This document shows positions 6,654 through 22,062 of a stretch of DNA of 64,000 bases, piece by piece; the first letter of the stretch is position 1, and the number at the start of each line of letters is the position of its first letter. The notes beneath the pieces are model-generated. The model did not search any database. It was not told the origin of the DNA and saw nothing but the letters and a program-made list of their open reading frames with translations. Source of the stretch: an uncultured Acidimicrobiaceae bacterium (GTDB taxonomy: Bacteria > Actinomycetota > Acidimicrobiia > Acidimicrobiales > CAIXPF01); assembly GCA_963775055.1 (NCBI GenBank), contig CAVZHK010000008.1, forward strand, positions 154,813 through 218,812, written 5' to 3'. The position numbers and the translations under genes were made by a program.

Positions 6654-8036
6654 TCAAACCTTCCGGCGGAGAATCGCCCCTTGTGGGGAGTCCTCGACCA
6701 ACCAGCCCACATCAGCCAGCTGGCCCCGAATGCGGTCCGCGGCGGCGAAGTCCCTGGCGGCGCGTGCCTCGGCCCGTTGCTGGGCCAACACCAACACATC
6801 CGTTGGCGGGCCGGTGAGATCCTGTTCGTGCAGGTCCAGGCCGACGGCGGCGCACATCTGACGGACGGCGGAGGCCAACCCGGCGGCGCTGGCATCATCT
6901 TCGGCGTCGAGCGCGGTGTTGGCGGCGCGAACCGCCCGGAACAGCTGGTCGAGGGCGCCGGGGGTGTTCAGATCGTCGTCCATGGCGGCGCGGAAGGCCT
7001 GGAGGATGGGCTCATCTGGCAGCGGCGGGCCTTGACCATCAGCGCCGCCGTGGAGCAGGTCGGCCGAGCGCCGGGCGAAGGCGTCGAGGCGGTCGAGAGC
7101 CCGTTCGGCGTCGGTGATGGTGGCCGCGGTGACCTCCAGCGGAGACCGGTAGTGGGCCCGCAGCACCAGCATCCGATAGGCCCGACCGTCGTGGCGTTCC
7201 AGCAGGTCGAGAAGGTTGGTGAAGTTGTCGAGGGACTTGGACATCTTCTCGCCCTCCACCTCCACGAAGCCGTTGTGGGTCCAGTGCCGGGCGAACTCCT
7301 TGCCGGCGGCGATGGCTTGGGCCCGTTCGTTCTCGTGGTGCGGGAAGGCCAGATCCTGGCCGCCGCCGTGCAGGTCGAACCCCTCCCCGAGCAGGTCGAG
7401 GGACATCACCACGCATTCCGTGTGCCACCCTGGGCGGCCGTCTCCCCACGGAGCGTGCCAGGTTGGTTCACCGGGCTTGGCCTTCTTCCACAAGGCGAAA
7501 TCGCTCGGGTTGCGCTTCTCGTTGCTGCCCTCCACCCGGGCGCCGGCCTGTAGGTCCTCGAGGTTCTGGCGGGCCAGCAGGCCGTACCCGGGGACCTGGG
7601 CGCAGTCGAGGTACACACCGTCTGTGGTTTCGTAGGCCTTGCCAGCGCCCAACAAGTCGGCGATCAGGGCGACCATCGGCTCGACGTACTCAGTGGCCCG
7701 GGGAGAGACGGTGGGACGTTTGACGCCGATGCCGTCCATGGCCCGGAACCAGATGGACTCGCACTTGGTGGTGATGTCCTGCCAGGGCCGCTGCTCGCGG
7801 TTGGCCCGCTCGATGATCTTGTCGTCGATGTCGGTGATGTTGGAGACGTAGCGGACCTCGAGGCCGCTCCATTCGAGGTAGCGACGCAGCACGTCGAACA
7901 CCAGCGAAAAGCGACCGTGACCGAGGTGCGGAGGGCCATACACCGTGGGTCCGCACACGTACATGGAAACCTGACCGGCTTGGCGGGGCTCAAAGGGCAC
8001 GACTTGTCCCTGGGCGGTGTCAAACAGGCGCAGCAT
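6654..8036 (-). CDS. cysS: cysteine--tRNA ligase
   Basis: YVCGPTVY, HLGH (HIGH), GRPGWHTEC, FPHHENERAQ, KMSKS. Confidence 0.98.
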   Translation of the reverse strand: MLRLFDTAQGQVVPFEPRQAGQVSMYVCGPTVYGPPHLGHGRFSLVFDVLRRYLEWSGLEVRYVSNITDIDDKIIERANREQRPWQDITTKCESIWFRAMDGIGVKRPTVSPRATEYVEPMVALIADLLGAGKAYETTDGVYLDCAQVPGYGLLARQNLEDLQAGARVEGSNEKRNPSDFALWKKAKPGEPTWHAPWGDGRPGWHTECVVMSLDLLGEGFDLHGGGQDLAFPHHENERAQAIAAGKEFARHWTHNGFVEVEGEKMSKSLDNFTNLLDLLERHDGRAYRMLVLRAHYRSPLEVTAATITDAERALDRLDAFARRSADLLHGGADGQGPPLPDEPILQAFRAAMDDDLNTPGALDQLFRAVRAANTALDAEDDASAAGLASAVRQMCAAVGLDLHEQDLTGPPTDVLVLAQQRAEARAARDFAAADRIRGQLADVGWLVEDSPQGAILRRKV

Positions 8037-8190
8037 CGCCGCCGAGCCTACCGATGGGTCCCGCTCGCGCCGTCATCGTTTCGCCGCCCTGGACGTTGGC
8101 CATGACCCCCGCCGCCGTCGGCCACTGCGCTGGCAGGGCCACGTTCCCCCGCCAGGGCCTGGAGCGTCTGCCGACAGCGCTTTTGACTTG

Positions 8191-8324
8191 CTCCGGTGAC
8201 GAAATTCGATCGACCCACCCACCGCCTCTTCCCCACCGGGGCATCGAGTCGGCTCGGGGGTTACGGTCGCCCATTCCGTCACCGGACAAACACTCCCCGC
8301 CGGCCGTCCATTTCGTCACCGGAG
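8191..8324. repeat. intergenic element bounded by a perfect 15-bp inverted repeat
   Basis: ctccggtgacgaaat (8191-8205) / atttcgtcaccggag (8310-8324), plus a partial internal copy attccgtcaccgga at ~8273. Confidence 0.75.
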
Positions 8325-8425
8325 GAAGGGATAGGTGCGGCAAAAGGCGGTCCCACCCGCGCCGGTCGCCCTGAAGGAACGGGCCCAGATCGGGGAAAGT
8401 GGACCGTGGGGACTACAGCGAATTG

Positions 8426-9730
8426 ATGGCTGAGGTCGATAGACGACGCATGTCTCGCGGTTGGCTGGGGGCCCGGGGTCCTCTCTGCATCGGCGCCGGA
8501 GCAGTTGTGCTCGGGTGCTATCTGGCGGCGGCCACCGTTGCCGCGGTGGTGCCAGGGCTGCAGGGCGCCGGTGCCGTCCTGATCACGGGCACGTTGCTGG
8601 CCTCCCTGGCCGCCATCGCCGTGTGGCTGGCCGCTCCCCGGCTGCGCAACGCCACGCCGGCGCCGCCGGTACTGGCCCGACCGCCCACGCGGGTGCTGTT
8701 CGCCGGGCCGAGCATGCGGACCAAGGAGCCGTTTCCGGAGACGGAGCGGTTGGCCCATCGATTGCGCTTCGACCAACAGCTCGAACGGGCCCTCGGGGAC
8801 GCCGAGGACCGCCGGGCACTGGCTGAGGTCGTGACCAGGGCCCTTGGCGTGGTCCCGCCCGAGGCGCCCGCTGAATGGCTGCAGCTCGGATCCCGGGGGC
8901 GAGCGCTCATCCAGGTGGCTGAGATCGGGCCCGACGGCGAGGGACCCGGCTGCCCGGTGATCGATCCTGACCACTGCGAAGCCATTCGTCGGGACCGCAC
9001 CCTCAGGTTCCACGGGGACGAGCTCGACGCCTGCCGCCACTTGGTGGACCGGTCCCCCGAACCATGCTCGGCGGTCTGCATCCCGGTGCGGGTCCAGGGC
9101 GAGGCCCGGGGGGTGCTGCATCGAACAGGAGACGAGGGCCGAGCACCGGGGGACCTCGAGGTCGGCTATCTGGAGTCGATGGCCGCCAAGTTGGGATCTC
9201 GCCTGGCCGTGCTGAGCCTGCAGAGCAGCGACGTGTCGAACGGCACCATCGATCGGCTCACCGGTCTGCTCAGCGCCGACGGACTCGAAGCCAAGATCCG
9301 CCAATTGGCCCGGGACATGACCCCCTTCGCGCTGGCCCAGTGCGACATCGACCATTTCAGCGAGTACGCCCAGCGTTACGGCCACGCCGGTGCGGATGAG
9401 GCGATGTGCACCTTGTCCCGGGCGGCCCTTCGCTGCCTTCGACCTGACGACCTGCTCGGACGAGGTCGCGGCGACGAGCTGCTGGCAGTGTTTCCGGCCA
9501 CGACTCCCACGGCCGCCCGCGGCGCGCTGGAGCGGCTTCGTGAGGAGTTGCTGCTCGAGCTGACGGCGAGCCATCAGGCGCCGTTCACGGTGAGTTTCGG
9601 GGTCATCGAATCCAGCTTCGGTCGGAGCCTCGACGAGCTGCTGGTGCAGGTCGACGCGGCCGCGGCTCTGGCCAAACAGCTCGGTCGAAATCGGGTGGTG
9701 CTGCACGGTGAGGTGCTCGACACGGACTGA
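8426..9730 (+). CDS. membrane-anchored GAF-like + degenerate GGDEF domain protein
   Basis: Two N-terminal TM segments; DRLTGLL, CDIDHF, YGH; A-site reads RGDEL; RPDD I-site; AKQLGRNRV. Confidence 0.88.
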   Translation: MAEVDRRRMSRGWLGARGPLCIGAGAVVLGCYLAAATVAAVVPGLQGAGAVLITGTLLASLAAIAVWLAAPRLRNATPAPPVLARPPTRVLFAGPSMRTKEPFPETERLAHRLRFDQQLERALGDAEDRRALAEVVTRALGVVPPEAPAEWLQLGSRGRALIQVAEIGPDGEGPGCPVIDPDHCEAIRRDRTLRFHGDELDACRHLVDRSPEPCSAVCIPVRVQGEARGVLHRTGDEGRAPGDLEVGYLESMAAKLGSRLAVLSLQSSDVSNGTIDRLTGLLSADGLEAKIRQLARDMTPFALAQCDIDHFSEYAQRYGHAGADEAMCTLSRAALRCLRPDDLLGRGRGDELLAVFPATTPTAARGALERLREELLLELTASHQAPFTVSFGVIESSFGRSLDELLVQVDAAAALAKQLGRNRVVLHGEVLDTD

Positions 9731-9758
9731 TGTCACCACCGACCGGCGCGATACCGGC

Positions 9759-11414
9759 ATGATGGGCCCGGGAAACCGCACCCGCGAGTGTCGAAGGGAT
9801 GGGCCGAGGTTGAACACACCAGCTGGCGGTCAGCACAGCATCGTGGTGCGCAGCAACGACTTGGCCGAACCCATCCCGGACCCGGCCGTGGCCACCCCGG
9901 GTGATCTCAACGCCGCGTTGCTGGCCACCAGCATCTGGTCCGATGAAGACCTGGCTCGGGCGCAGATCCCCGTGATCGACGTGCCGCTGGTGACCGCGGG
10001 GGGTGGCATCGGCAGCTTCGTGCTGGTCGACATGCTGCGAGTCGCCGGGGTGCCCACCCAGCAGATCCGAACGCTGACCAACCTCGACCATCCGTGGCAG
10101 ACCTACCAGTACCTGACCCGGGTATCGCAGATCCCCGAGCACGAGCGGCTCCGGTCAGATTCCAGCGGCATGCCGGACAACGTCTGGGGTTTCCCGTCCT
10201 ACGCCCTGCGGGAGGCGGCGGCGGAGAAGACCCTGGCCCCGCTGTGGAGCGTGCTGGTGGAGCCGATCTTCACCGACTATTGGACGCCCAGGGCCCGCAC
10301 CGCGTTCAGCGGCATGGCCAAGGAGGCGCAACGGATCGGCTATCCCGAGACCGTGGCCAAGGGGCAGGTCCGGCTGGTGCGGCGTCGTCACGGCGGCGGG
10401 TACTTCACGGTGCTGACCCCGCCGGCGGGGGCCACCCCCACCCGTCGCATCGCCTTTCGGAGCCGGTTCGTGCATCTGGCGGTGGGCTACCCGGGGCTGC
10501 GGTTCCTGCCCGACCTGCAGGAATATCGCCAGACGTACGGCGACTACGGCCACGTGGTGAACGCCTACGAACCGCACGAGCAGGTCTACGAGGAGCTCAA
10601 ACGCCGGCCGTGTGTGGTGATGGTCCGCGGCGGCGGCATCGTGGCATCACGCATCCTGCAGCGGCTCATGGAGGACCGCTGGCACCACGGCGCGCCGACC
10701 ACCATCGTGCATCTGTTCCGCACCTTCGTGGCCCACAGCCAGGATCGGGGTGGGCCGTTCTACCGGCGCCAGGGCGGGGGTGGTTTCGCCTACCAGGGCT
10801 TCAACTGGCCGAAGGGGGCGTGGGGTGGGCAGCTCAAGTCCCGCTTCGAGAGCCTCGAGGGTGAGGAGCGGGCGGCGCTGTACCGCAAGCTCGGCGGCAC
10901 CCACACCCCCAAGAGGAAGTTGTGGCAACAGCAGATGGGCCGGGCCCGGACCGAGGGTTGGTACCACACCGTGCACGGCACCGTGGAGCAGGTGCTGCGA
11001 AGCCCCAACGGGCAAGTCGCCAGTCGGGTGAAGCTGGCCAATGGGTCCACGCAGGAGGTGCTGGCCGATTTCGTCATCGACGCCACCGGCCTGGAGGGTG
11101 ATCTGCGCGATCACCGCCTGTTGGCCGATCTCCTCGATCATTCCAATGCCGGTCGGAACCCGATGAGCCGGCTCGATGTGGAGCGCTCCTTCGAGGTGCG
11201 GGGCACGCGCTCTGAGCCGGGGGGACGGATGTACGCCTCGGGCTCCATGACGCTGGGCGGCTACTACGCCGGGGTGGATTCCTTTCTCGGCTTGCAGTAC
11301 GCCGCGCTGAGCATCGCCGATGATCTGGCGTCGCAGGGGTTCTGTGAGCGCATCAGCACGGCCCGGTCCTTGTCCCAATGGTGGCGTTGGATGCGCAACC
11401 GTCCCGTTTCCTGA
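9759..11414 (+). CDS. uncharacterised FAD/NAD(P)-binding (class B flavoprotein-like) protein
   Basis: AGGGIGSF (GxGxxS), LAVGYPG, second Rossmann motif RGGGIVAS, FVIDATG. Start uncertain (ATG 9759 or TTG 9810). Confidence 0.75.
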   Translation: MMGPGNRTRECRRDGPRLNTPAGGQHSIVVRSNDLAEPIPDPAVATPGDLNAALLATSIWSDEDLARAQIPVIDVPLVTAGGGIGSFVLVDMLRVAGVPTQQIRTLTNLDHPWQTYQYLTRVSQIPEHERLRSDSSGMPDNVWGFPSYALREAAAEKTLAPLWSVLVEPIFTDYWTPRARTAFSGMAKEAQRIGYPETVAKGQVRLVRRRHGGGYFTVLTPPAGATPTRRIAFRSRFVHLAVGYPGLRFLPDLQEYRQTYGDYGHVVNAYEPHEQVYEELKRRPCVVMVRGGGIVASRILQRLMEDRWHHGAPTTIVHLFRTFVAHSQDRGGPFYRRQGGGGFAYQGFNWPKGAWGGQLKSRFESLEGEERAALYRKLGGTHTPKRKLWQQQMGRARTEGWYHTVHGTVEQVLRSPNGQVASRVKLANGSTQEVLADFVIDATGLEGDLRDHRLLADLLDHSNAGRNPMSRLDVERSFEVRGTRSEPGGRMYASGSMTLGGYYAGVDSFLGLQYAALSIADDLASQGFCERISTARSLSQWWRWMRNRPVS

Positions 11415-11457
11415 GCCTGATTCTGAGCCCTGATCCGCGCATGAAAGGCCTGCCGAC

Positions 11458-11895
11458 ATGACCCCCACGCTCATGGGCCGCATCCAGACCAGGTTGTTCC
11501 TGCTGGCGGTGGTGGGCCTACCGTGGACGCTCATCGCCACCCCGTTCCTACCCCGCCACCTGGGCGTCGGTTCGCTGGGCGGGCTCTACGCCACCACCCT
11601 GACCGCATGGCTGTTGGTGGGGGTGTTGGGCTGTGTCGTTTGGGAGCCGCTGTACCATTTGGGCCAGCAGTTCCGTTGGGAAAAGGACTGGCCCACACTG
11701 TTTGGTTTGCTCACCATCGTGCCCGAGTCACTGCTGCTGTGGTGGCTGCTCCCGGCTTATGAAAATAGCCCGGCCTCTGGTTGGACCTTTTTCTTTCACA
11801 TCACATCAACCTGGCTACTGATGTGGCTGGCGGTGATCGGACCCATCCGAATCGTGTTCATTCGTTACCGCTTCCGTGGCGGCCGGATTCTCTAG
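11458..11895 (+). CDS. small integral membrane protein (about 4 TM, Trp-rich, RWEKDWP motif), unknown function
   Basis: 145 aa hydrophobic ORF, SD-like gaaagg upstream, in operon context. Confidence 0.85.
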   Translation: MTPTLMGRIQTRLFLLAVVGLPWTLIATPFLPRHLGVGSLGGLYATTLTAWLLVGVLGCVVWEPLYHLGQQFRWEKDWPTLFGLLTIVPESLLLWWLLPAYENSPASGWTFFFHITSTWLLMWLAVIGPIRIVFIRYRFRGGRIL

Positions 11896-11907
11896 GAGCG
11901 TGCCCCG

Positions 11908-12756
11908 ATGAGCACTCCCAGTTCCTCGGCCGCGCACGGCGCCGTGGCCGACTACCAGCTGGTCGAGGTGGTGCACGACGGCACCACCTCCCGACAGTAC
12001 CGCGCCGTGCCCCCGCCCCGGTTGGGTCTGGCGCCCGGCGAGCTGGTGGTCATCAAGTTGCTCGAGGGCACCGGCGAGCGGGCCTTTTCCAGGCTGTCGC
12101 GGTTGTTGCAGACCTTCGCCGCGGTGCAGGACCCGCACCTGGTTCGGTTGCTCGACGCCGGTCAGCACGAGGATGTCTTCTTCTACGCCACCGCTGACTG
12201 GAGTGATGGCAGTTTAGCCCGGCCCCGCGTCCCGGTTGGTCCGGCGCGGGCCTTGGCGGCGGTCGCCGATCTGTGTCACGGCGCCCACGCGTTGCATGAG
12301 GCCGGTGTCGCCCATCGTGACATCTCCCCCGCAACGGTGTTGCTGCACCCCGCCGGCGCCTGGCTGGGCGGACTGGATCTGGCCCGCGCTGCCATGGGCG
12401 GCGGCTCGGTCACCTCGATGGCCGCCCTGCAGTCGGTGGGGTATGTCGATCCGGCTTGCATACGGGGAGAACCGCCGTCACGGGCTTCGGACGTGTATTC
12501 CATCGGCGCTACCCTGCACTTTGCGCTGACCTGGACACCGATCCATCCCAACCTGCCCGAGGATGACGCGGTGATGGCGGTTCGACGGGTGCTGCGGGAC
12601 GCCCCCCACCTGTCGCCGTCGCTTGACCCTTCGGCGGTGCAGATCATCCGGGCCTGCCTGAACCCTGATCCCTTGGCCCGTCCGGCCACCGCCCTGGAGC
12701 TGGTGGCTCTGTTGGCGGGCCTGGCGCCTGTCCCGTCGCCCCCTGAGGGGGCGTGA
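11908..12756 (+). CDS. Hanks-type Ser/Thr kinase-like protein, probably a pseudokinase
   Basis: VVIK, HLVRLLDAG, HRDISPATV, SDVYSIG, RP motifs present; DFG replaced by GGL; no Gly-rich loop; SD aggag at 11895-11899. Confidence 0.85.
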   Translation: MSTPSSSAAHGAVADYQLVEVVHDGTTSRQYRAVPPPRLGLAPGELVVIKLLEGTGERAFSRLSRLLQTFAAVQDPHLVRLLDAGQHEDVFFYATADWSDGSLARPRVPVGPARALAAVADLCHGAHALHEAGVAHRDISPATVLLHPAGAWLGGLDLARAAMGGGSVTSMAALQSVGYVDPACIRGEPPSRASDVYSIGATLHFALTWTPIHPNLPEDDAVMAVRRVLRDAPHLSPSLDPSAVQIIRACLNPDPLARPATALELVALLAGLAPVPSPPEGA

Positions 12757-14300
12757 TGTTGCTCGATCGGGCCCGTTTGGTGCCGTTGCAGCCACTCTCA
12801 CGGGGGCGATTGGCCCGATTCGAGGGGTCGCTGTGCCTGGTCGGTGAGGATCCCACCAGGGTCGCCAGCGCGGCGTTGATCGACGTGTGCCGAACCCACC
12901 GCGGGCCGGGCGCTGAGCTCATCGAAAAGGTCGCTTCCATGGTGCAACGCGCCGCCGGAGCCACCCTGCCGGCGTTCGTGGTGGTGGCCCAGGACGGCGA
13001 CGCGCTGCTGGTGGCTTTGCACGGACCGGCGTCCGTGACGGTCCACCAGCCGGCGGGGCCGTTGCAGCTGGACGGGAGCGAATCGACAGCCTGGGTCACC
13101 AGCCGGGTGCTGGACGCCGCGGCCCTCAATGCCGCCCTGGTGGAAGGGCCACCCATGGCCGTTCCGGCGCTGGTTGACCTGCAGCGCGGCGTGGCCGTGG
13201 GTGACGGCTTCGCCCTACTGGCTGAGGGCGTGGCCCCCGGGGACCTCGGCGGAAACGACGGGGCTGTCCCCTTGGCGTCCCAGGCTCCCGGTCCGGTGTC
13301 CGGCGTTGGCGATGTGAAAGTGCTCGCCGATGCTCCCGGCGCCGAGGTTCCCGCTGCGCCCCTGGCCCTTTCGCCTGAGGCCATTCGCCGGGTGCTGACC
13401 TCCGATCCCCTCGTGGTGGCCCAGCCGGCCCATACAGAAGAGCCCCTCGCCCCGGCGCCCCTCACAGCAGAGCCCCTCGCCCCGGCGCCTGCTCCGAGCG
13501 GCCCGGTCGCTCCGCCGCCGCAAGAAGATCCGGTCCCTCCGGCGCCCCCGGTCCTCCAGCCAGACCCGGTCCGCCCGGCACTGGCTGTCCTGCCCGCCGT
13601 GCCGGACAGCCCCCGATCACCGCTGGACGTGCCGGTCGGGGCTCACCCGGCATCTCCGACCCCGGCCGCGGAGCGCCCCGGCCCCGCTCCGCTCGGTTTC
13701 GCCTCCCTGCCAGGGGGCGCGTTCAAGATCGTGGAGTTGCGCCCGCCCAACCCGGCGCCCGCCGCCGCTCCCTTGCCGGTGGCGCAACCGCGGACCCCGA
13801 ACGACTCGCCGGAAGCGCCGAGCGGGGCGGTTCGTGTTCGGGGGGTGAACTGCGGTCGGGGCCACTTCAACGATCCGCGGGCCCGCTTCTGCGCGGTGTG
13901 CGGTCTGGCCATGTTCCAGACCAGCATCGTGATGCAGGAGGGTCCAAGGCCACCGTTGGGCGTGCTGTTGTTGAGCAACGGCGAGAGCTTCCCGCTCAAC
14001 ACGAACCTGGTGTTGGGCCGTGAGCCGGGCGTGCACCCCGCGGTCAGCAGCGGCGAGGCCGTGGGCCTGGTGCCCACCAGCATGGGGCCGAGCCTGTCCC
14101 GCCTCCACGCCCAGGTACGGCTGGAAGGGTGGGATGTGGTGCTGATCGATGAGGGCTCCACCAACGGCACCTTCGTCTGGGACGAGACCCGTCGGCAGTG
14201 GAACCGTCTGGTGGCCCATCAGCCCTACGTGTTGCGCCCCGGTGACCAATTGGCCTTCGGGGCGCTCACCGCCACGTTCGAAACGTCCTTGCAGCAGTGA
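12753..14300 (+). CDS. FHA domain protein with Pro-rich linker and Cys/His zinc-ribbon-like motif
   Basis: C-terminal LVLGR...SLSRLHA...DEGSTNGTFV...LRPGDQL (FHA); CGRGHFNDPRARFCAVCG; overlaps the kinase stop (GTGATG). Confidence 0.9.
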   Translation: MMLLDRARLVPLQPLSRGRLARFEGSLCLVGEDPTRVASAALIDVCRTHRGPGAELIEKVASMVQRAAGATLPAFVVVAQDGDALLVALHGPASVTVHQPAGPLQLDGSESTAWVTSRVLDAAALNAALVEGPPMAVPALVDLQRGVAVGDGFALLAEGVAPGDLGGNDGAVPLASQAPGPVSGVGDVKVLADAPGAEVPAAPLALSPEAIRRVLTSDPLVVAQPAHTEEPLAPAPLTAEPLAPAPAPSGPVAPPPQEDPVPPAPPVLQPDPVRPALAVLPAVPDSPRSPLDVPVGAHPASPTPAAERPGPAPLGFASLPGGAFKIVELRPPNPAPAAAPLPVAQPRTPNDSPEAPSGAVRVRGVNCGRGHFNDPRARFCAVCGLAMFQTSIVMQEGPRPPLGVLLLSNGESFPLNTNLVLGREPGVHPAVSSGEAVGLVPTSMGPSLSRLHAQVRLEGWDVVLIDEGSTNGTFVWDETRRQWNRLVAHQPYVLRPGDQLAFGALTATFETSLQQ

Positions 14301-15241
14301 AGGTGGGTGTGGGGCTGTGGTGCCTGCAATCCTCGGCGTTGCGGCCCCGACCGTTCCCGGCGTTGTATCAGGAGCTGCTGGAGGACGCTCGCCGCGCCGA
14401 ATCAGTGGGTTTGCACAGTCTTTGGCTTTCCGAGCACCACTTTTTCTATGACGGGTACTGCCCGGCGCTGCTGGCGGCGGCGGCTGGAGCGTTGTCGGTC
14501 ACCGAACGGTTGCGGGTCGGCACCGGGGTGCTGCTGTTGCCATTGCAGCGTCCGAGCCGGGTGGTGGCCGCCGTCGAGGACCTGGACCGCAGTTCGGGGG
14601 GACGCCTTGATCTGGGCGTGGGGGCCGGCTATCGGGAGATCGAGTACGTCGGGAAGGGACTGCGCTTCGAGGATCGGCTCGAACGCATGCGCCGCGGCCT
14701 CGACGCGCTGGGCGCTCTGTCTGCTCCGGTGTGGGTGGGGGTGTCAACCCCGGCGGCAGCACGGCGGGCCGGGCGGCGCAATCTGGGGCTGTTCCTCTCC
14801 GGGGCGTTCCCGCCCGCGGTGGTGCTGCAGTTGATCGAAGAGCACCGAGACGCATGGCACGAAGCCGGTGGGGTCGGCGGGGTCGGCGGCGGGCCGCCAC
14901 CAGTGGGCCTGTTACGAAACGTGTGGTTGGCCGACACCCCCGCCGAACGGGAACAGGCGTTGCACTGGGCCCGGTCCAGCTACGTGGTGTACGCCGGGCT
15001 GGGCTGGACCGCCAGCGACGCCGGCATGGACTTCGCGGCCAGTGTGGACGCCTCCATGGATGAGATGGCGCGGGGCGCGATCATCGGCAACGCAGAGCAG
15101 GTGGCCGAGGAGCTGCGGCGCTTCGATGGTATCGATACAGTCGTGTGCCGTATTGGATATGACCTACCACCCCGCTCGGCGATCATCGAGGTTCTCGAAC
15201 GCATCGGCACCGAGTTGGCACCGCTGCTGGAGACCCGATGA
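14297..15241 (+). CDS. LLM class flavin-dependent oxidoreductase
   Basis: WLSEHHF, RLRVGTGVLLLP, GRLDLGVGAGYR; GTGA coupling to the FHA gene. Confidence 0.9.
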   Translation: MKVGVGLWCLQSSALRPRPFPALYQELLEDARRAESVGLHSLWLSEHHFFYDGYCPALLAAAAGALSVTERLRVGTGVLLLPLQRPSRVVAAVEDLDRSSGGRLDLGVGAGYREIEYVGKGLRFEDRLERMRRGLDALGALSAPVWVGVSTPAAARRAGRRNLGLFLSGAFPPAVVLQLIEEHRDAWHEAGGVGGVGGGPPPVGLLRNVWLADTPAEREQALHWARSSYVVYAGLGWTASDAGMDFAASVDASMDEMARGAIIGNAEQVAEELRRFDGIDTVVCRIGYDLPPRSAIIEVLERIGTELAPLLETR

Positions 15242-15786
15242 GCGCAGAGCCGGTGCCCTTCGACGCCACCCGGCGCGGCATGATCCTGGACGACGACGCC
15301 GGCTCTGACGCGGAGGGCCGCGCCGCCTGGTTGCAGCGGGCCCGAGCGGCGGAGGAGGCCGGGGTGCCGGCGCTGTTGGTGAGCGGACCTCCCGGTACGG
15401 AGATCGTTCGTGCGGCGGCGGTGGCGGCGCAGACCCGTTGGGTGCGAATCGTGGTCGTTGTGGACCTTGACGACGAGGACCCCGTGACGCTGGCCGAGGA
15501 GCTCGCCGTGCTGGACAACCTGGCCGGCGGTCGGGTGGTCGTCCTCACCAAGGGCGGCTCAGCACACGAGCAGGCCATGCTGCGTTCGGCGTTGGCGGGC
15601 GAGGTGGTCCGGGGCGTCACCATCAGCCCACCCCCGGCGCAGCTGAACCTGCTGGTCCACGAAGCGGGCTGGGCCTCGGGCCGCTTCATCACCTGGGACG
15701 GTGACCCCGCTGAGGTGGTGCGGTCGTGTGCGCCACCCATCGTGACCGAGCTGAGCCGGCGTTTCGCCCCCGGAAGCACCGGCTGA
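15238..15786 (+). CDS. truncated/degenerate LLM-like protein (LuxB-like partner?)
   Basis: ARAAEEAG, AAAVAAQT, PVTLAEELAVLDNLAGGR; only 182 aa; ATGA coupling. Confidence 0.7.
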   Translation: MSAEPVPFDATRRGMILDDDAGSDAEGRAAWLQRARAAEEAGVPALLVSGPPGTEIVRAAAVAAQTRWVRIVVVVDLDDEDPVTLAEELAVLDNLAGGRVVVLTKGGSAHEQAMLRSALAGEVVRGVTISPPPAQLNLLVHEAGWASGRFITWDGDPAEVVRSCAPPIVTELSRRFAPGSTG

Positions 15787-15816
15787 TCCCCAGAACGGTC
15801 CGCTCCCCGGAGGGCT

Positions 15817-17193
15817 TCAGCGCACCGTGACCGGCTCGATCTGGCGGGCGATGGTAGGGACGAATCGGTCCATCAGGGGGCCGGTCATAGCGGTTGTGAT
15901 CAACGCCATGAGCACCCCACCAACCTGCATGGGCGCTGAGATCACGCCTTGGTTGAAGGCGATGAGGGCCACCACCAACACCAGCAGGCCCCGGCAGTTC
16001 ATGAGCACCCCGATGACGTTGGCCTCGGCCCAGCTGAGCCCACCGAGGCGGCCGAAGAGCAGACCCGACGCCCACTTGGCCACCACGCCGACCACGATGA
16101 AGGCCACCAGCCCGACGATGACGTCCATGCCGAGCTTGGTGAAATCGGTCTGCAAACCGGAAAAGGCCAGGAACACCGGCAGCAGGACGATCACCGTCAG
16201 GTCGTTCAGCCGGCCGGCCATCTCCGGGCGCAGACGTTCCGGCGCCGGCATGACCACCCCGGCGAGGAAGGCCCCGACGATGACGTTGATGCCGATGCGG
16301 TCCGCAGCGTACGCCGAGGCCAACGTCACCCCCACGCACATCGCAAAGGTCGTACCGGACAGTACCGTACCTTGTCGTATGGAGGGTTCGAGGCGACGGA
16401 GCAGCGGACGTACCACCCCGAACATCACCGCCAGGAAGATGGCCGCCCCCACGAAGCGCAGGACCTGTCCCCCGGCGCTGGCGTCCGCCGCCACCCCCCG
16501 GGCCACGCCCACCGCCAAGAACATGAACACCGTGACCAACGCCGCTGAGGCGATCCCGATGGCACCCATCTCGGTCTGATCGAGTCGCTTCTCCTGCAGG
16601 ATGCGAGCGGCCACCGGAAAGGCGGTGACGGACAACATGGCACCGATCATGAGGTTGAAGGCCAGCTTGGACGGGGCGGTCTGGGTGCCGAAGTTGGCCA
16701 CGAACGGCGCGTCGTACAGCAACGGGGACAAAGCGAACCCCGCCGCCAACGGCACCGCCACCACGCCCACGGCCACGCTGACCACCCCGGCCAGTCGGCC
16801 TCGGAGTTGGCCCAGATCGAGCTGCAGGCCGACCACGAACATGAACAGGATCAACGCCAACTGCCCGATCAGACCCAACAGCGGTCGGGCCTGCGGAGGA
16901 AAGAGGCAGGTGGTGATCGAAGCCACCCCTTTGGTGGGCTCCAGCGCTTTGCGGCAGGCCAGCACCCCCGGAGCGTTGTTCCATACGAACATGGTGGGCC
17001 CCAACAACGAGGGACCGAGCAGCACACCGGCGACGATCTCCCCGACCACCCGGGGTTGACCCAACTTCACCGACGCCGCGCCGCACAACCGGGCCATAAC
17101 GATGATGATCACCAGGCCCAGGAACACGAAGGCCGCCACCTGATCGGGCGGGAGGCCCGTCGGAGGCGTAGCTTGGGCTAACAACATGGTCAT
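15817..17193 (-). CDS. cation:proton antiporter (CPA2 family)
   Basis: LGQPRVVGEIVAGVLLGPSLLG, SVTAFPVAARIL, LLPVFLAFSGL, LMNCRGL. Confidence 0.93.
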   Translation of the reverse strand: MTMLLAQATPPTGLPPDQVAAFVFLGLVIIIVMARLCGAASVKLGQPRVVGEIVAGVLLGPSLLGPTMFVWNNAPGVLACRKALEPTKGVASITTCLFPPQARPLLGLIGQLALILFMFVVGLQLDLGQLRGRLAGVVSVAVGVVAVPLAAGFALSPLLYDAPFVANFGTQTAPSKLAFNLMIGAMLSVTAFPVAARILQEKRLDQTEMGAIGIASAALVTVFMFLAVGVARGVAADASAGGQVLRFVGAAIFLAVMFGVVRPLLRRLEPSIRQGTVLSGTTFAMCVGVTLASAYAADRIGINVIVGAFLAGVVMPAPERLRPEMAGRLNDLTVIVLLPVFLAFSGLQTDFTKLGMDVIVGLVAFIVVGVVAKWASGLLFGRLGGLSWAEANVIGVLMNCRGLLVLVVALIAFNQGVISAPMQVGGVLMALITTAMTGPLMDRFVPTIARQIEPVTVR

Positions 17194-19559
17194 CGGTCGC
17201 TCCTGTGCACTGGTCGGCTCGAGTGGGACGTCGGATCGGCGGAGGCCACGGGAGCGGAAGCCGTTGCCGCCACCACTCGTTCGGCCAACGGTGGGCGCTC
17301 GCCAAGCCGGCCCCTCACCGCCAGCACCGGCGTGGTGGCGGCGGACAGCGTTGCCACCACCGTGACATCTATCCCGCCGGGGCCGAACAGCAGCCCGGCC
17401 ACCAGCGGCCCGCCATTGGCGCCGCCGTCTCCCTCGACGTGGTCGGGCGCCACCGCGGATACCGAGAAGCCGGCTCGTTCCAGCTGTTCCACGGCGTTGC
17501 GACCGGCGCGGCCCGAGCTGATAGCGACCAAGGCACCGTGGCGACTGCGGGCCAGCCGGGCGCCGTGCTCGGCCACCGCAGGGGCCTCACCCGATCGCAG
17601 ATCGACCACAATCGCGGCGGCCCCGCCCCGTTCGTCTCCGCGGTCGTCGGGTCCGGCGCCAGGATCGCGTCCGACGGGCGCCAGGGTCGGGCCGGCGATC
17701 ACCAGCAGATCGGCCAGGTCGGCGTCGGCCAGCGCTTGGATGGTGTTCACCACCGACAGCTCCGCTGCCCAGGGCACCACGACGGCGTCGTGAGCGGCGC
17801 CTCGCAGTTCGTCGAGCAATTCCTGAAGGGCGTTCCCGGCGAAGCGAACCGTGACCCGGGCGGTCACACCGGCCGTCTCGATGGCCCGACGAGCCGGTTG
17901 GATGCCAGCCATGACCGAGCTCAACCGACTCAGCTCGTTGCCCTCCATCAGCGCGTAGATGGACACCACGGCAGGACGCTCAGGGCCCACCGCGGCCAGC
18001 GCGATGCCCACCGCCCGCTCAGCCAGGGCGCTCAGCTCCGTTTGGTGGCGCAGCTCCGGCGCTGAACCCCCAACGCCGTCAAGCGCCGTCACCGGTCCGG
18101 CCGGCGGCCCCCCGACGGCCAGCAGCGCGCCGCTGGGGAGCGCTGATCCCACGGGCAAGGCGATGGCCACTCGGTAACGGGCGCCGTCAGTGCTGGCGCG
18201 GCGTTCGGCGTCAGCGATGTCCCGGGCCAGCAGACGGGCGGGATACACCACACCCAACGCGGGGCCGGCGGCCACCGTGGTCAGCACCGCCATGATCACC
18301 ATCATCGTGAACAGTGGCCCATCGATCAGCCCGGCGGAGCGGCCGATGTTGAGGATCACCAGCTCGGTCAGGCCCCTGGTGTTCATGAGCGTCGCCAGGG
18401 CCAGCGACTGCCGGGTGGACATACCGCTCAGTCTGGCAGCCAGTCCCCCGCCCACGAACTTGCCGATGCAGGCGGTGGCCAGCACCGCCAGCAGCGTCGG
18501 CAGGCCGTCCCAACCCAGGCCCTTGATGTCCACCCCGAGACCGGTCACCACGAAGAACACCGGGAGCAGCACCACCACGCTGATGCCCTCAACCCGTTCG
18601 GATAGCTCATGGGCCAACGAGCCCATCTGCCGTCGGGGCACCGCCGCGCCGAAAAGGAAGGCCCCGATCAGGCTGGCCAGGCCGATGCGGTTGGCCACGT
18701 AGGCGCTGGCCAGGGCGCCGGCCAGCAGCACCGCCAACACATCGGGGCCCAGCCGCCCGGCCCGGCGGTAGCGGGACATCACCAATCGGTCCAGCAGCGG
18801 CCGTACCATACCGAACAGGACGGCGATGAAGGCCGCCAGCTCCGCCATGGCGATGGGGACGTGGCCGATGTCCCCCGAGCTGGCGATGGCCACCACCATG
18901 GTCAGCAGCGCGAACACAATGATGTCATCGATGGCGGCGCAGGCGATGGCCAACATGCCCAGCGGTATGCGGAACATGTTGCGTTCGGTGAGGATGCGGG
19001 CCAGGACGGCGAAGGCGGTGCCGCTCATGGCCACCCCCATGAACAGCGCGAAGGGCACGATGGCGGTGGACTCACCCTCCACGTTGCCGTAGCGCCCGTG
19101 GATCAACGGCGCCAAGACCAGTCCGCCGAGGGCCATGGGTACCGCGATTGAGCTGAGTGACAGCGTGACCGCCCGCCGGCCCGAGCGGCGAAGACCATCG
19201 GGGTCTATCTCCAGACCGACCACGAACATGAAGATGACCAGGCCCAGCTCGGCGGCGACCTTGAGATAGGGCCGGGTGTCGAGAGGAAAGAGCCGGTCGG
19301 GCAGATCACCGGGGAACAGCCCCAGCAGGGACGGTCCTAGGCTGATACCGGCCAGTATCTCCCCCAGCACCATGGGCTGGCCGAGCTTGCGGGCCGCCAG
19401 CCCCACCAATCGGGCCACCACTACGATCACCGCGATGGCCAGGAAAGCCTGCGCGGCGACCCGGTCAAGGGGGCTGGAACCAGCCGCCAACAGACCGCCC
19501 GGTACGGCCCCGACGGCCAGCTCGGGCGGCAGGGCGGCGTTGAGGAGGGCCCCGATCAT
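17190..19559 (-). CDS. cation:proton antiporter (CPA2 family) with long C-terminal cytoplasmic region (USP-like?)
   Basis: LGQPMVLGEILAGISLGPSLLG, TAFAVLARIL, AAIDD, LMNTRGLTELVILNIG; about 350 aa soluble tail; ATGA coupling on both sides. Confidence 0.93.
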   Translation of the reverse strand: MIGALLNAALPPELAVGAVPGGLLAAGSSPLDRVAAQAFLAIAVIVVVARLVGLAARKLGQPMVLGEILAGISLGPSLLGLFPGDLPDRLFPLDTRPYLKVAAELGLVIFMFVVGLEIDPDGLRRSGRRAVTLSLSSIAVPMALGGLVLAPLIHGRYGNVEGESTAIVPFALFMGVAMSGTAFAVLARILTERNMFRIPLGMLAIACAAIDDIIVFALLTMVVAIASSGDIGHVPIAMAELAAFIAVLFGMVRPLLDRLVMSRYRRAGRLGPDVLAVLLAGALASAYVANRIGLASLIGAFLFGAAVPRRQMGSLAHELSERVEGISVVVLLPVFFVVTGLGVDIKGLGWDGLPTLLAVLATACIGKFVGGGLAARLSGMSTRQSLALATLMNTRGLTELVILNIGRSAGLIDGPLFTMMVIMAVLTTVAAGPALGVVYPARLLARDIADAERRASTDGARYRVAIALPVGSALPSGALLAVGGPPAGPVTALDGVGGSAPELRHQTELSALAERAVGIALAAVGPERPAVVSIYALMEGNELSRLSSVMAGIQPARRAIETAGVTARVTVRFAGNALQELLDELRGAAHDAVVVPWAAELSVVNTIQALADADLADLLVIAGPTLAPVGRDPGAGPDDRGDERGGAAAIVVDLRSGEAPAVAEHGARLARSRHGALVAISSGRAGRNAVEQLERAGFSVSAVAPDHVEGDGGANGGPLVAGLLFGPGGIDVTVVATLSAATTPVLAVRGRLGERPPLAERVVAATASAPVASADPTSHSSRPVHRSDR

Positions 19560-20872
19560 TGGGGGATGGCCGCCAAACGATTCACCGCGGTGGCGAACAG
19601 GTCGTTGAAGAGGACCTCGTCCCCGGTGGTGAACTCCCGCCCGATCACCGCCACGCCCACCGAGGTCAGGTTACGCCCGCAGCGGGCCAGTCCCACCGCC
19701 CGGGTGACCGTTGGTCCCGCCAACGAGGAGGGCGCCGCCACCTGGAGGAACACCTCGCTGTCATCACACTGGGTTGGTGTCTCGAAGGGGGTGACCGCAA
19801 GCGTGTACTCCACCCCGTTGACCACCGTCGTGGAGAACGCACAGTTGGCGACCAGGCTTCGTGCACCGTCCAGGATGGCCGCCGCACCGCCGGCGTCGGC
19901 GTAGGACTGCACGTCATTGTCGATGCGCACCCCGCTGGTGGTGCCGTCCACGACCTCGAAGGCGGTGTTGGCCCGCAGTTGGGAGGTGATCACCACCGGC
20001 TGGCCGCAGTAAGGCTCGTCCGTCCCATACGCCACGGTCTGGTAGGACGGTCCGATATCGGTTGCGGTGAGCAGCGCCGACTGGACCTCGGGCAAGGTCG
20101 GGGGACGCTCCAGCACGGACCCGGTGGTTGCCGTGGGATTGGTGGCCGGGGTCAACGGGACGGTGCTGGGAAGGAGGCTGGTGGCGCTGGACGGCCGGTC
20201 GTTGCGGTTGGCGCGGGATCCGCTGGTGGCCGACGCTGTCTCGGTGCCGTCATCGCGGGCCAACAGCCCGATCACCCCCAGCAGCACCGCCACCGCCAAG
20301 GCCCCGACCAGCGCGGCCCGAAAAGCCTTGCTCTGGCCGCCCGCCGGCTTGCGGTGTGTGCCCGGTGTGCCAGGTGTGCCCTGGGTCTCATACCAGCCGG
20401 GGCCGCCGCTGAAGGCCATGTGGGGCTGACCATGGGTGACGTTCACGCCCGGCCCGCCGGTTCCGTGACCGTAGGCCGGGTTGGGTCCCGGTCCGGTTGG
20501 TATCGGGGCGCCGGGCTGGGCACTGCTGGGTCCGGCCCAGGCCGTTGGCGCAGCTCCGGGGGACCAGGCTCCCCCCGCCGCCGGTTGGATCCAGGCGGGC
20601 GGGGCCGCAGGCGGTCCACCCTCGGGTGCGCCCCACGCCGGCGGGTTCGAGGCCGGCGGGTTGGACCAGGGCGGGTTGGACCAGGGCGGGTTGGAGCTCG
20701 GTGGGTTCGAGGCCGGCGGGTTCGAGGCCGGTGGGTTCGAGGCCGGTGGGTTGGAGCTCGGCGGGTTGGACCAGGGTGGGTTCGACACCGGTGGGTTGGA
20801 GCTCGGCGGGTTGGACCAGGGTGGGTTCGACACCGGTGGGTTGGAGGCCGGCGGGTTGGACCAGCGCGGCAT
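19556..20872 (-). CDS. Pro-rich repeat + TM + Cys-containing extracytoplasmic (PknH-like sensor?) region; likely the C-terminal half of the Hsp70-family gene after a frameshift
   Basis: (SNPPx)15, Pro/Gly linker, TM ALVGALAVAVLLGVIGLLA, Thr/Ser stalk, domain with LLTATDIG and 4 Cys. Confidence 0.7.
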   Translation of the reverse strand: MPRWSNPPASNPPVSNPPWSNPPSSNPPVSNPPWSNPPSSNPPASNPPASNPPASNPPSSNPPWSNPPWSNPPASNPPAWGAPEGGPPAAPPAWIQPAAGGAWSPGAAPTAWAGPSSAQPGAPIPTGPGPNPAYGHGTGGPGVNVTHGQPHMAFSGGPGWYETQGTPGTPGTHRKPAGGQSKAFRAALVGALAVAVLLGVIGLLARDDGTETASATSGSRANRNDRPSSATSLLPSTVPLTPATNPTATTGSVLERPPTLPEVQSALLTATDIGPSYQTVAYGTDEPYCGQPVVITSQLRANTAFEVVDGTTSGVRIDNDVQSYADAGGAAAILDGARSLVANCAFSTTVVNGVEYTLAVTPFETPTQCDDSEVFLQVAAPSSLAGPTVTRAVGLARCGRNLTSVGVAVIGREFTTGDEVLFNDLFATAVNRLAAIPQ

Positions 20873-22013
20873 CGGCGCTGCCCGGGCCGACCGGTTGGGT
20901 CTGATCCCAACCCGCCCCGGAGGACAACACCGAGCGCCCGTGAGTGGCCCCCAGCGCCACCGCCGTCTTGGGATCGCCCCGGCGGCTGACGTTGACCCCG
21001 GGGAAGGCGTCGCACACCATTCGTTCCACCAACGGGGAACGGCTGGCCCCGCCGGCCAGGTACACCGCGGCCAGCTGCAGCGGTTCCAAACCAGCGTCCG
21101 CCACCGCCCGGCGCAACACCTCCACCGAGCTGGCGATGTACGGCTCGATCAGCAATTCGAACTCGTCCCGGGTGACCCGTTGGGTGACCATGCCGTTCGG
21201 TAGGGCGACCAGGAGCTCGGCGTAGGGATGGGAGGAGAGGGCCTCTTTCACCCGCCGGGCCTCACTGCGCAGGGCCGAGGCCGCTTGTTGCCAAGCCCGC
21301 TCGTCGGACACCTGCAGCGCCTCCCAAACCTCTTCGTTCAGGCGGGAACCGACGAAGTTGGCCAGCAATTCGTCGAACAGATCCCCCCCGAGGCGGTCCT
21401 CGCCACCGGGGCGCCCGATGACCACGAACCCCGGGGCGTCGTGCTGCACGGTGGCCTGCAGCACCGCGGTGTCGAACGTGCCGCCGCCCAGGTCGTACAC
21501 CGCCACGAAGCCGCCGGGGGCCACACCGACCTCATCGGCGAAGGACACCGCCGCGGCCACCGGTTCGGGCACCAGCACCGGGTTCGGCAGCTGGGCCCGG
21601 GCCGCGGCCTGCAGCAACCGATCCAAGCGAACCCGGCCCCAAGAGGCGGGATGGGTGAGACGAACCTCGACGGGGGGCGAGCCCACGTGGCGCACCGCTT
21701 CCTGGTACACGTAGGCCAGCAACGATGCGATGAGGACCGTGACGTCATGGGTGCGGCCCCCCAGGATGATCGGCGCCGGCTCCCCGATGCGGGACTTCGG
21801 GGCCCGGATGGCGCGACCCGGCGAGGAGGTGGCCAGGTCCTCGGCGGAGCGGCCGACCACCAGGGAGCCGTCGTCCTCAGCCAACACCACCGACGGCACC
21901 CGGCGCTCGCCACCGATCTCGATGACCTCGGGACCCCGCCGGGTACGGGCGGCGGCCACCGTGAAGCTGGTACCGAAATCAATCCCCAGCACCCACGGAT
22001 CCTGCACGCTCAT
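20388..22013 (-). CDS. Hsp70-family ATPase (nucleotide-binding domain only), probably frameshifted into the 19556-20872 ORF
   Basis: GIDFGTSFT, PEPVAAA, VYDLGGGTFD, LAGGASRSP, DPKTAVALGA; no substrate-binding domain; in-frame tail after the repeat is non-protein-like. Confidence 0.85.
   Translation of the reverse strand: MSVQDPWVLGIDFGTSFTVAAARTRRGPEVIEIGGERRVPSVVLAEDDGSLVVGRSAEDLATSSPGRAIRAPKSRIGEPAPIILGGRTHDVTVLIASLLAYVYQEAVRHVGSPPVEVRLTHPASWGRVRLDRLLQAAARAQLPNPVLVPEPVAAAVSFADEVGVAPGGFVAVYDLGGGTFDTAVLQATVQHDAPGFVVIGRPGGEDRLGGDLFDELLANFVGSRLNEEVWEALQVSDERAWQQAASALRSEARRVKEALSSHPYAELLVALPNGMVTQRVTRDEFELLIEPYIASSVEVLRRAVADAGLEPLQLAAVYLAGGASRSPLVERMVCDAFPGVNVSRRGDPKTAVALGATHGRSVLSSGAGWDQTQPVGPGSADAALVQPAGLQPTGVEPTLVQPAELQPTGVEPTLVQPAELQPTGLEPTGLEPAGLEPTELQPALVQPALVQPAGLEPAGVGRTRGWTACGPARLDPTGGGGSLVPRSCANGLGRTQQCPARRPDTNRTGTQPGLRSRNRRAGRERHPWSAPHGLQRRPRLV
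20636..20860. repeat. 15-bp coding tandem repeat x15 (SNPP[A/V/W/S])
   Basis: ggcgggttggaccag / ggtgggttcgaggcc-type units directly visible. Confidence 0.95.
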
Positions 22014-22062
22014 GAACCAACCTCTCGTTCCGGTGACCCTGAAGGAGCCGCTCAAAGCCCTA

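Follow-up and report, generated by a model that had tools for sequence, protein, structure and literature searches.

Class B flavoenzymes are defined by two dinucleotide-binding motifs and an ATG linker motif, and the N-hydroxylases SidA, PvdA, KtzI, DesB and NbtG carry such a linker within a two-Rossmann FAD/NAD(P)H architecture. In the CPA2 K+ efflux systems KefC/KefB, the flavoproteins KefF/KefG are flavodoxin-like FMN quinone reductases which dock on the KTN domain. A Hanks kinase fold and an FHA reader are found with a membrane-associated effector in MviN, whose pseudokinase domain goes with FhaA, and FraH of Anabaena has an N-terminal zinc ribbon, not adjacent to its FHA domain, and a Pro-rich region. 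According to the available part of the source, the ABC transporter Rv1747 with PknF is an FHA/kinase-controlled membrane machine (PMC3138270). In the part of PMC9035410 that was available, FraH has a role in intracellular membrane reorganisation, is phosphorylated at T177 and is associated with a kinase, its cloning primer encodes an N-terminal CxxC, and no link to a flavoprotein of the kind described below is reported. The domain types of the parts described below, and the control of membrane machines by FHA domains and kinases, are known. Here, a stretch of 64,000 nucleotides from an uncultured Acidimicrobiaceae bacterium (contig CAVZHK010000008.1, positions 154,813 to 218,812; the window) was analysed, in which an earlier reading of the letters alone (the original prediction) had proposed a flavoenzyme operon under phospho-signalling control. 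In the window we find a single copy of a five-gene module that is conserved and uncharacterised and whose reality we regard as close to certain; it is composed of a flavoprotein, a four-transmembrane (4TM) partner, a kinase-fold protein, an FHA adaptor and a CPA2-type antiporter.

To define the conserved unit, 80 Actinomycetota genome loci were fetched by alignment to the flavoprotein, and the partners were sought by tblastn with the window proteins. Just 60 of the 80 loci had at least 6 kb of downstream sequence, and the partner counts are therefore lower bounds. The membrane partner was found in 79 loci, nearly always directly downstream of the flavoprotein, the kinase-fold gene in 70, the FHA gene in 65 and the CPA2 antiporter in 63, and all five occurred together in 57. 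All-against-all clustering of the open reading frames (ORFs) of the loci returned the same five families, with no other cluster in more than 16 loci, and among the clusters represented in at least 12 of the 80 loci none resembled a phosphatase. From the densities in this 5.2-Mb genome (2 PF00999, 8 FHA and 21 Pkinase matches), the chance of at least one match in a 20-kb span is about 1% for PF00999, 3% for FHA and 8% for Pkinase, so that linkage in 63, 65 and 70 of 80 loci, respectively, lies far above chance. Since these five families recur at the loci, the conserved unit consists of the flavoprotein, the 4TM partner, the zinc-ribbon/FHA adaptor, the kinase and the CPA2 antiporter.

The six-gene operon of the original prediction was thereby redrawn. 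Its linkage of flavoprotein, membrane protein, FHA gene and kinase stood in the 80 loci, whereas its pair of luciferase-like monooxygenase (LLM) genes did not: LLM1 had tblastn matches in 4/80 loci, with a full-length match only in locus L001, and LLM2 was found in 1/80 (L001, 69% identity). The antiporter genes on the opposite strand (15817-19559) are a conserved partner absent from the unit first proposed. The GGDEF gene upstream was present in 5 loci and cysS in 8. It is the window's clade, with L001 as the closest locus, that has added the LLM pair and the GGDEF gene.

The distribution of the flavoprotein and its partner was assessed with profile searches in an even sample of 401 genomes of the phylum. 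Six genomes, this one included, had a match to the flavoprotein profile, and the membrane-partner profile matched the identical six, adjacent to the flavoprotein in all of them; the pair is therefore obligate, though patchy. The flavoprotein is single-copy in this genome. One membrane-partner match in a complete genome (G071:C1:156161-156628) contained one in-frame TGA, which may mean that the gene is broken, that the frame is extended or that the sequence contains an error.

We slightly favour, as the best overall explanation, a flavoenzyme-4TM redox module at the membrane, switched by the kinase and FHA proteins and coupled to, or regulating, a CPA2 antiporter. Under this proposal, a cytoplasmic two-Rossmann flavoenzyme of the FAD/NAD(P)H type would dock on the four-helix membrane protein, and the complex would carry out, at the membrane, a redox step that depends on NAD(P)H. 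The kinase would create phosphothreonine (pThr) sites, and the FHA reader, acting in trans in Actinomycetota and in cis, as a fusion, in other phyla, would bind them and so switch assembly or activity. The redox step would in turn be coupled to, or regulate, the neighbouring antiporter, as part of a module for ion, pH or redox stress. The individual parts are not equally secure: phospho-control of the complex by kinase and FHA reader is rather probable, and coupling of the redox step to the antiporter is a tentative suggestion, somewhat less likely to hold than to fail. The features of the locus are listed in Table 1.

Table 1. Genes of the module and its immediate neighbours, with positions in the window and profile evidence.
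Feature	Position	Strand	Length (aa)	Evidence and remarks
GAF-like and degenerate GGDEF gene	8399-9730	+		Lineage-specific neighbour; GGDEF 81.3 bits, 8.6e-23
Flavoprotein, unnamed family	9759-11414	+	551	Two dinucleotide-binding motifs and DATG; ATG start at 9759
Four-helix membrane partner	11458-11895	+	145	No Pfam family
Kinase-fold protein	11908-12756	+	282	Pseudokinase in this lineage; Pkinase 2.7e-15, 56.9 bits (cut-off 31.7)
FHA adaptor	12753-14300	+	515	N-terminal domain, Pro-rich linker, zinc ribbon (CGRGH...CAVC), FHA
LLM1, luciferase-like monooxygenase	14297-15241	+	314	Bac_luciferase PF00296 2.1e-38, 132.9 bits
LLM2, short LLM-like protein	15238-15786	+	182	Bac_luciferase PF00296 1.7e-08, 34.6 bits
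CPA2-type cation/proton antiporter	15817-17193	-	458	PF00999 1.7e-37
CPA2-type cation/proton antiporter	17190-19559	-	789	Long C-terminal extension; PF00999 6.6e-54, no further Pfam family

The flavoprotein belongs to an abundant family. A word-indexed search returned 2297 homologues, and the best 120 of these were 60-96% identical, came from Acidimicrobiia and many orders of Actinomycetes, were annotated as 'hypothetical' at best and were without a Pfam domain. Across a 21-sequence alignment (A1; Acidimicrobiia and Actinomycetes), the window protein was 59-83% identical. No Pfam family was matched above its cut-off (only Trp_halogenase, below cut-off), NCBIfam and PADLOC returned nothing, and in the PDB searched by sequence phmmer gave no significant match and the family profile nothing below E 0.8, in agreement with the original prediction, which could name no enzyme. 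The N-hydroxylase family PF13434 (Lys_Orn_oxgnase) was not matched by the window protein at E <= 0.01, nor by any of the 21 aligned members at E <= 1. The two dinucleotide-binding motifs and the DATG motif that had been pointed out from the letters are present (GGGIGS at residues 81-86, GGGIVAS at 291-297, DATG at 441-444) and are conserved in 47 aligned sequences from both groups. The family-wide conserved positions are G81xG83xG85S, G291xG293xxA296 and D441xTG444, and a C-terminal block, GxxxxxG...VDxFxGLQ, was also conserved across the 47 sequences. No Cys column was invariant or at least 90% conserved in either the 21- or the 47-sequence alignment.

An AF2 model of the monomer (mean pLDDT 75.9) was compared with solved structures by two independent methods. 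Foldseek placed SidA, PvdA, DesB, KtzI and NbtG at the top (E ~1e-17, TM 0.46-0.68, 12-15% identity). VIA-align, which does not depend on Foldseek, gave its highest score to the bacillithiol disulfide reductase YpdA/Bdr (Z 22.6, rmsd 3.4, 322 residues aligned), then to DesB (Z 21.2, rmsd 4.3, 380 aligned) and SMFMO (Z 21.0, rmsd 4.0, 321 aligned), with SidA (Z 19.5) and thioredoxin reductase (Z 19.1) further down. The likeness to class B flavoprotein monooxygenases (FMO) and N-hydroxylases that had been proposed from the motifs thus holds at the level of the fold, which is closer to the FMO/N-hydroxylase/YpdA group than to the disulfide reductases. Judged from model and alignments, the family appears to form a branch of its own among the two-Rossmann FAD/NAD(P)H enzymes. 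The alignments to YpdA/Bdr and SMFMO cover the whole of those chains; the window family differs from both in having no conserved Cys, in being about 200 residues longer and in showing no sequence-level match to them.

The main rival to the proposed redox module follows from this fold. The protein could be a true class B monooxygenase that hydroxylates or oxygenates either a membrane lipid or a small amine, be it a polyamine or an amino acid; the 4TM protein would then deliver or export substrate or product, and the antiporter would be a neighbour by synteny only. The best Foldseek matches, which also include a putrescine N-hydroxylase, are all N-hydroxylases (E 1e-14 to 1e-17), the longest structural alignments are to these enzymes (380-389 residues vs 322 for YpdA), the GxGxxA and DATG motifs are present, no Cys is invariant, and the language-model neighbours include PF13434 clusters (score 0.96-0.97). 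We nevertheless consider this explanation unlikely, given that PF13434 is absent from every aligned member and that the family profile finds no sequence relative in the PDB, and given also that the conserved neighbours include no siderophore, nonribosomal peptide synthetase (NRPS) or other biosynthetic gene and that the CPA2 gene is interleaved among the module genes in 28 of the 80 loci. The N-hydroxylases share the two-Rossmann architecture and the ATG-type linker motif with the window family, which differs from them in its low identity, in its neighbours and in a family-specific conserved loop, YQGFNWPK, lying at the predicted interface with the membrane partner. Further differences are the obligate 4TM partner, the fusions to FHA domains and the kinase wiring; to our knowledge, SidA, PvdA, KtzI, DesB and NbtG have none of these.

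The membrane partner, for which 1253 homologues were found, was modelled alone and in complex with the flavoprotein. The model of the partner (pLDDT 86.6) consists of four long helices; a fold search with it gave a best Z of 7.5 (WbaP, rmsd 4.1, 127 residues aligned), below the meaningful level for helical bundles, and no fold was assigned. The invariant residues cluster in three segments: M-T-P-T-L-x-G-R-x-Q-T-R at the N-terminus, F-R-W-[ED]-x-D-W-P in the loop that joins helices 2 and 3, and R-W-R-[FY]-R-G-G at the C-terminus. These segments are taken as cytoplasmic because they lie on the Arg/Lys-rich side. The model of the flavoprotein-partner complex reached an ipSAE of 0.83, against 0.00 for the best of three controls; in calibration, 58 of 80 solved complexes attained this value, as did 2 of 110 mismatched pairs. 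The runs agreed in at least 95% of contacts, with a partner pLDDT of at least 89.

In the predicted interface, the flavoprotein contributes a conserved segment, PDNVWGFPSY (142-147), together with the YQGFNWPKGAWGGQLK loop (333-361) and the helix at its C-terminus (532-541). The monomer model shows this loop as disordered. The interface residues W143, R337, Q346, P351, G357, S537 and W541 coincide with invariant motifs. On the side of the partner, the interface is formed by T2-L5, the FRWEKDWP loop and the C-terminal RxRFRGG, that is, by the three invariant segments, with predicted contacts at residues 2-5, 70-81 and 128-142. The model supports binding of the flavoprotein to its partner, and on this prediction it is likely that the best-conserved loops of the two proteins bring the enzyme onto the 4TM protein from the cytoplasmic side.

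The signalling parts of the module are the kinase fold and the FHA adaptor. FHA domains bind pThr through a motif of Gly-Arg, Ser-x-x-His and Asn-Gly, and the corresponding stretches in the FHA domain of the window's adaptor (residues 422-503; 9.7e-10, 39.2 bits, cut-off 20.7) read LGREP, SRLH and TNGT. Residues 360-515 of the adaptor are the part conserved across loci, and all 62 of the sequences compared have a zinc ribbon of the form C-x3-H-x10-C-x2-C just ahead of the FHA domain, on which ground the adaptors are assigned to one orthologous family. FraH has a similar set of parts (zinc ribbon, Pro-rich region, FHA), the comparison being by description only, and differs in that its ribbon is N-terminal and not directly before the FHA domain. 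With Rv1747/PknF and MviN/FhaA, the module shares the combination of a Hanks kinase, an FHA reader and a membrane-associated effector, joined by gene linkage or by fusion; here, however, the effector is a flavoenzyme-4TM pair of no known family, and the adaptor has its zinc ribbon immediately before the FHA domain.

The kinase-fold relatives are mostly complete, with a GxGxxG loop, VAVK, the alpha-C Glu, H[RG]DIKPxN and DLG, and the catalytic Lys, Asp, Asn and Asp were kept in 57 of 68 aligned orthologues (three of the other 11 rows being truncated ORFs). At the Gly-loop, the alpha-C Glu, the catalytic-loop Lys and Asn and the DLG Asp, most orthologues read G-G-G, E, K, N and D, where the window protein has H-G-S, L, S, T and G; it keeps the VAIK Lys and the HRD motif. 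Several catalytic residues were lost in the window, L001, L002 and L009, which form the window's clade, and separately in L004, L008 and L073. The term 'pseudokinase' used in the original prediction is thus apt for the window and its nearest relatives and does not extend to most orthologues, and by comparison of the aligned residues the pseudokinase is a derived, local state. Beyond the antiporters lies a divergent pair, an Hsp70-like protein of 555 aa (20388-22055, -) and a canonical Ser/Thr kinase of 763 aa (22346-24637, +; Pkinase 2.5e-35), the latter 2.8 kb past the antiporters and a candidate active kinase for the module.

Candidate phosphosites were sought in the flavoprotein and the membrane partner. 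A motif near the flavoprotein N-terminus (residues ~27-34; window 9840-9860) reads T-I-x-[ILV] in about 21 loci (e.g. L012, L022, L037, L050), the scorable kinases of which are all intact, and S-I-[IV]-V in the window, L001, L003 and L009, the scorable kinases of which are degenerate. The latter form possibly represents a lost phospho-acceptor, in a small sample confounded by relatedness. As a universal phosphosite the T-I-x-[ILV] motif was rejected, being present in only ~21 of 79 flavoprotein ORFs examined. A better universal candidate would be the invariant Thr-rich N-terminus of the membrane partner, with the invariant Thr2, Thr4 and Thr11 as candidate acceptors; T2 has a Leu at +3, and the segment forms part of the predicted interface.

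Apart from the two antiporter genes next to the module, which score 129.6 and 183.6 bits (cut-off 26.2) over the transmembrane domain, no PF00999 match occurs in the genome (5.2 Mb, 90% complete). Across the 80 Actinomycetota loci, the median distance of the antiporter to the flavoprotein was 2.5 kb, and in the 28 interleaved cases its gene sits between the FHA and kinase genes. Copies of the 458-aa antiporter, 53-92% identical, stand next to the module in Acidimicrobiia loci. The likeness to the Kef systems is one of logic only, namely a flavoprotein gene beside a CPA2 antiporter and possibly a coupling of redox state to cation/proton exchange. The module differs from them in the two-Rossmann, FAD-type fold of the flavoprotein, in antiporters on neither of which Pfam detects a TrkA_N, KTN or RCK domain, and in having a 4TM partner and FHA/kinase wiring.

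Relatives beyond the phylum were examined for the same associations. An exhaustive representative search gave 549 flavoprotein relatives, with Rubricoccus marinus and the cyanobacterium Microseira among the named distant members. Of 28 long distant homologues scanned, 21 had one or two N-terminal FHA domains, one had an N-terminal Pkinase domain and six had no Pfam family; a Pfam scan of six relatives of ~500 aa likewise returned no family. A further 80 loci from metagenomes (L082-L161; median guanine-cytosine (GC) content 0.43) were fetched by an alignment of the FHA-fused form. A separate 183-aa FHA gene lies directly upstream of the enzyme in 71 of them, the 4TM partner is present at full length in 49 (32-41% identity to the window partner), a Ser/Thr kinase in 12 and a CPA2 antiporter in nine (31-44% identity to the window's 789-aa antiporter over the membrane domain). 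The FHA-fused relatives in other phyla that the original prediction had mentioned are therefore real, and recurrent linkage with FHA and kinase genes and FHA fusions across phyla, either of which it had named as support, were both found. In the literature search, which covered listings and abstracts, no paper was found on an FHA-linked flavoprotein of this kind.

Three single sequences join parts of the module in one chain. P0438 (671 aa) has a flavoprotein-like part matching residues 48-470 followed by the membrane partner, P0437 (381 aa) has the membrane partner followed by an FHA domain, and P0241 (841 aa) joins kinase and flavoprotein, with 58% identity. The fusions P0438 and P0437 are consistent with physical proximity of the parts. 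In the metagenome loci, an endonuclease V gene was also seen further upstream in 37/80, a GDSL lipase gene between enzyme and membrane partner in 17/80 and an SPFH/Band 7 protein nearby in 13/80.

A number of points weigh against the kinase- and FHA-switched redox module as we propose it. What is observed is the fold class, conservation, co-occurrence and fusions; docking, phospho-control, the redox reaction and the coupling to the antiporter are inferred. The fold picks no chemistry, as a YpdA reductase, N-hydroxylases and an FMO fall within about 1.5 Z of each other, and the complex score is the model's own confidence, obtained from alignments that we built. P0438 and P0437 are each a single sequence and may be gene-calling artefacts. 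The window's kinase is catalytically degenerate, so that phospho-control here would need another kinase. With respect to the antiporter, a Kef-like contact would have no obvious docking site, since Pfam finds no KTN or RCK domain; the CPA2 link is weak outside Actinomycetota (9/80 metagenome loci); and it could be partly inherited synteny, as kin loci are not independent. In a stronger form of the proposal, the flavoprotein-4TM pair would be a novel membrane-docked redox complex, gated in its assembly or activity by the dedicated kinase and the zinc-ribbon/FHA reader, and would directly control the CPA2 antiporter. Such a phospho- and redox-gated switch of ion homeostasis, shared by Actinomycetota, cyanobacteria and other phyla and with a chemistry unlike that of characterised class B flavoenzymes, is doubtful.

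The patchiness of the pair (6/401 genomes) would also fit an accessory or mobile function, and a second rival takes this up: an accessory conflict or defence system in which a kinase/FHA sensor triggers a membrane effector made of flavoenzyme, 4TM protein and ion transporter. Despite the patchy occurrence, identity between classes is about 60%, defence systems often use kinase/FHA sensing and membrane effectors, and the kinase-fold protein matches the PADLOC kinase models PD-T4-6 (1.6e-26) and mad6 (1.3e-20). These PADLOC matches are generic, however, the unrelated kinase at 22346-24637 scoring far higher on the same models; neither the flavoprotein nor the membrane partner nor the FHA adaptor was matched by PADLOC, and the neighbours are housekeeping genes, with no mobile-element or defence-island genes among the conserved ones, which makes a defence role very unlikely. 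Least probable of all, and hardly credible, is a soluble thiol-disulfide or other reductase of the YpdA/thioredoxin-reductase type with a coincidental regulatory link to FHA, kinase and antiporter, since, for all that YpdA is the best VIA-align match (322 of its 326 residues) and thioredoxin reductases follow (Z 17-19), such enzymes carry one or more conserved redox-active cysteines, of which the alignments show neither an invariant nor a near-invariant one, and the family has an obligate membrane partner with a confident predicted interface and FHA fusions across phyla.

The organisation of the locus itself agrees with what was read from the letters. The six co-oriented ORFs at 9759-15786 (+) lie directly 3' of the GGDEF gene, and their overlaps are exactly as the original prediction gave them: a GTGATG at the kinase/FHA junction (12753-12758), where the GTG start and the kinase stop TGA (12754-12756) overlap, a GTGA at the FHA/LLM1 junction (14297-14300) and an ATGA at the LLM1/LLM2 junction (15238-15241). 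The gaps at the three preceding junctions, from the GGDEF gene to the flavoprotein, on to the partner and on to the kinase, are 28, 43 and 12 nt. The flavoprotein could also start from an in-frame GTG at 9708. Local GC is 0.64-0.74 across the module region. A promoter and terminator scan of 8000-20500 gave no promoter-like and two terminator-like sites, not above shuffled sequence, and was uninformative on operon structure. In a look-up of sequencing runs, no RNA run was listed as carrying the sequence, and just three DNA runs contained small shares (0.05-0.14) of its words. The module's neighbours have housekeeping roles, namely cysS and the genes for an MFS transporter and an acyl-CoA dehydrogenase, and no NRPS or siderophore enzyme is encoded by the rest of the window.

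Of the genes added in the window's clade, LLM1 is translationally coupled to the FHA gene and matches PF00296 over its full length (residues 22-276 on profile positions 20-307 of 314), with all NCBIfam subfamily matches below their cut-offs. In LLM2 the match is confined to profile positions 21-116 of 314, roughly one third of the fold counted from its N-terminal end, and there is no space to complete the fold before the convergent gene ending at 15817. It may represent a fragment similar to a subunit and not a gene in decay. In L001 LLM2 is kept (8979-9506), at 69% identity and translationally coupled. The GGDEF gene had been called degenerate, and its signature does read RGDEL instead of GG[DE]EF, with an RxxD-like RPDD five residues before; its GAF region was found only below the Pfam cut-off. 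This is the sequence pattern of a putative c-di-GMP-binding, non-catalytic protein. The window also encodes a third luciferase-like monooxygenase (34273-35169, +) and a HAMP-GGDEF-EAL protein (59090-62050, -), for neither of which a link to the module was seen.

Two abundant families, with 2297 and 1253 homologues, are thus described for which no Pfam or NCBIfam model, no solved sequence relative and no paper was found, and their gene context yields an unusually clear and directly testable hypothesis. The window is a natural variant of the module, with a dead kinase and extra LLM genes, and is useful for probing what a kinase fold unable to phosphorylate does within it. If the hypothesis is true, the flavoenzymes would form a new branch of the two-Rossmann enzymes that needs a membrane subunit, and the module would give Ser/Thr-kinase/FHA signalling in bacteria a new class of effector, and CPA2 antiporters perhaps a new mode of regulation.

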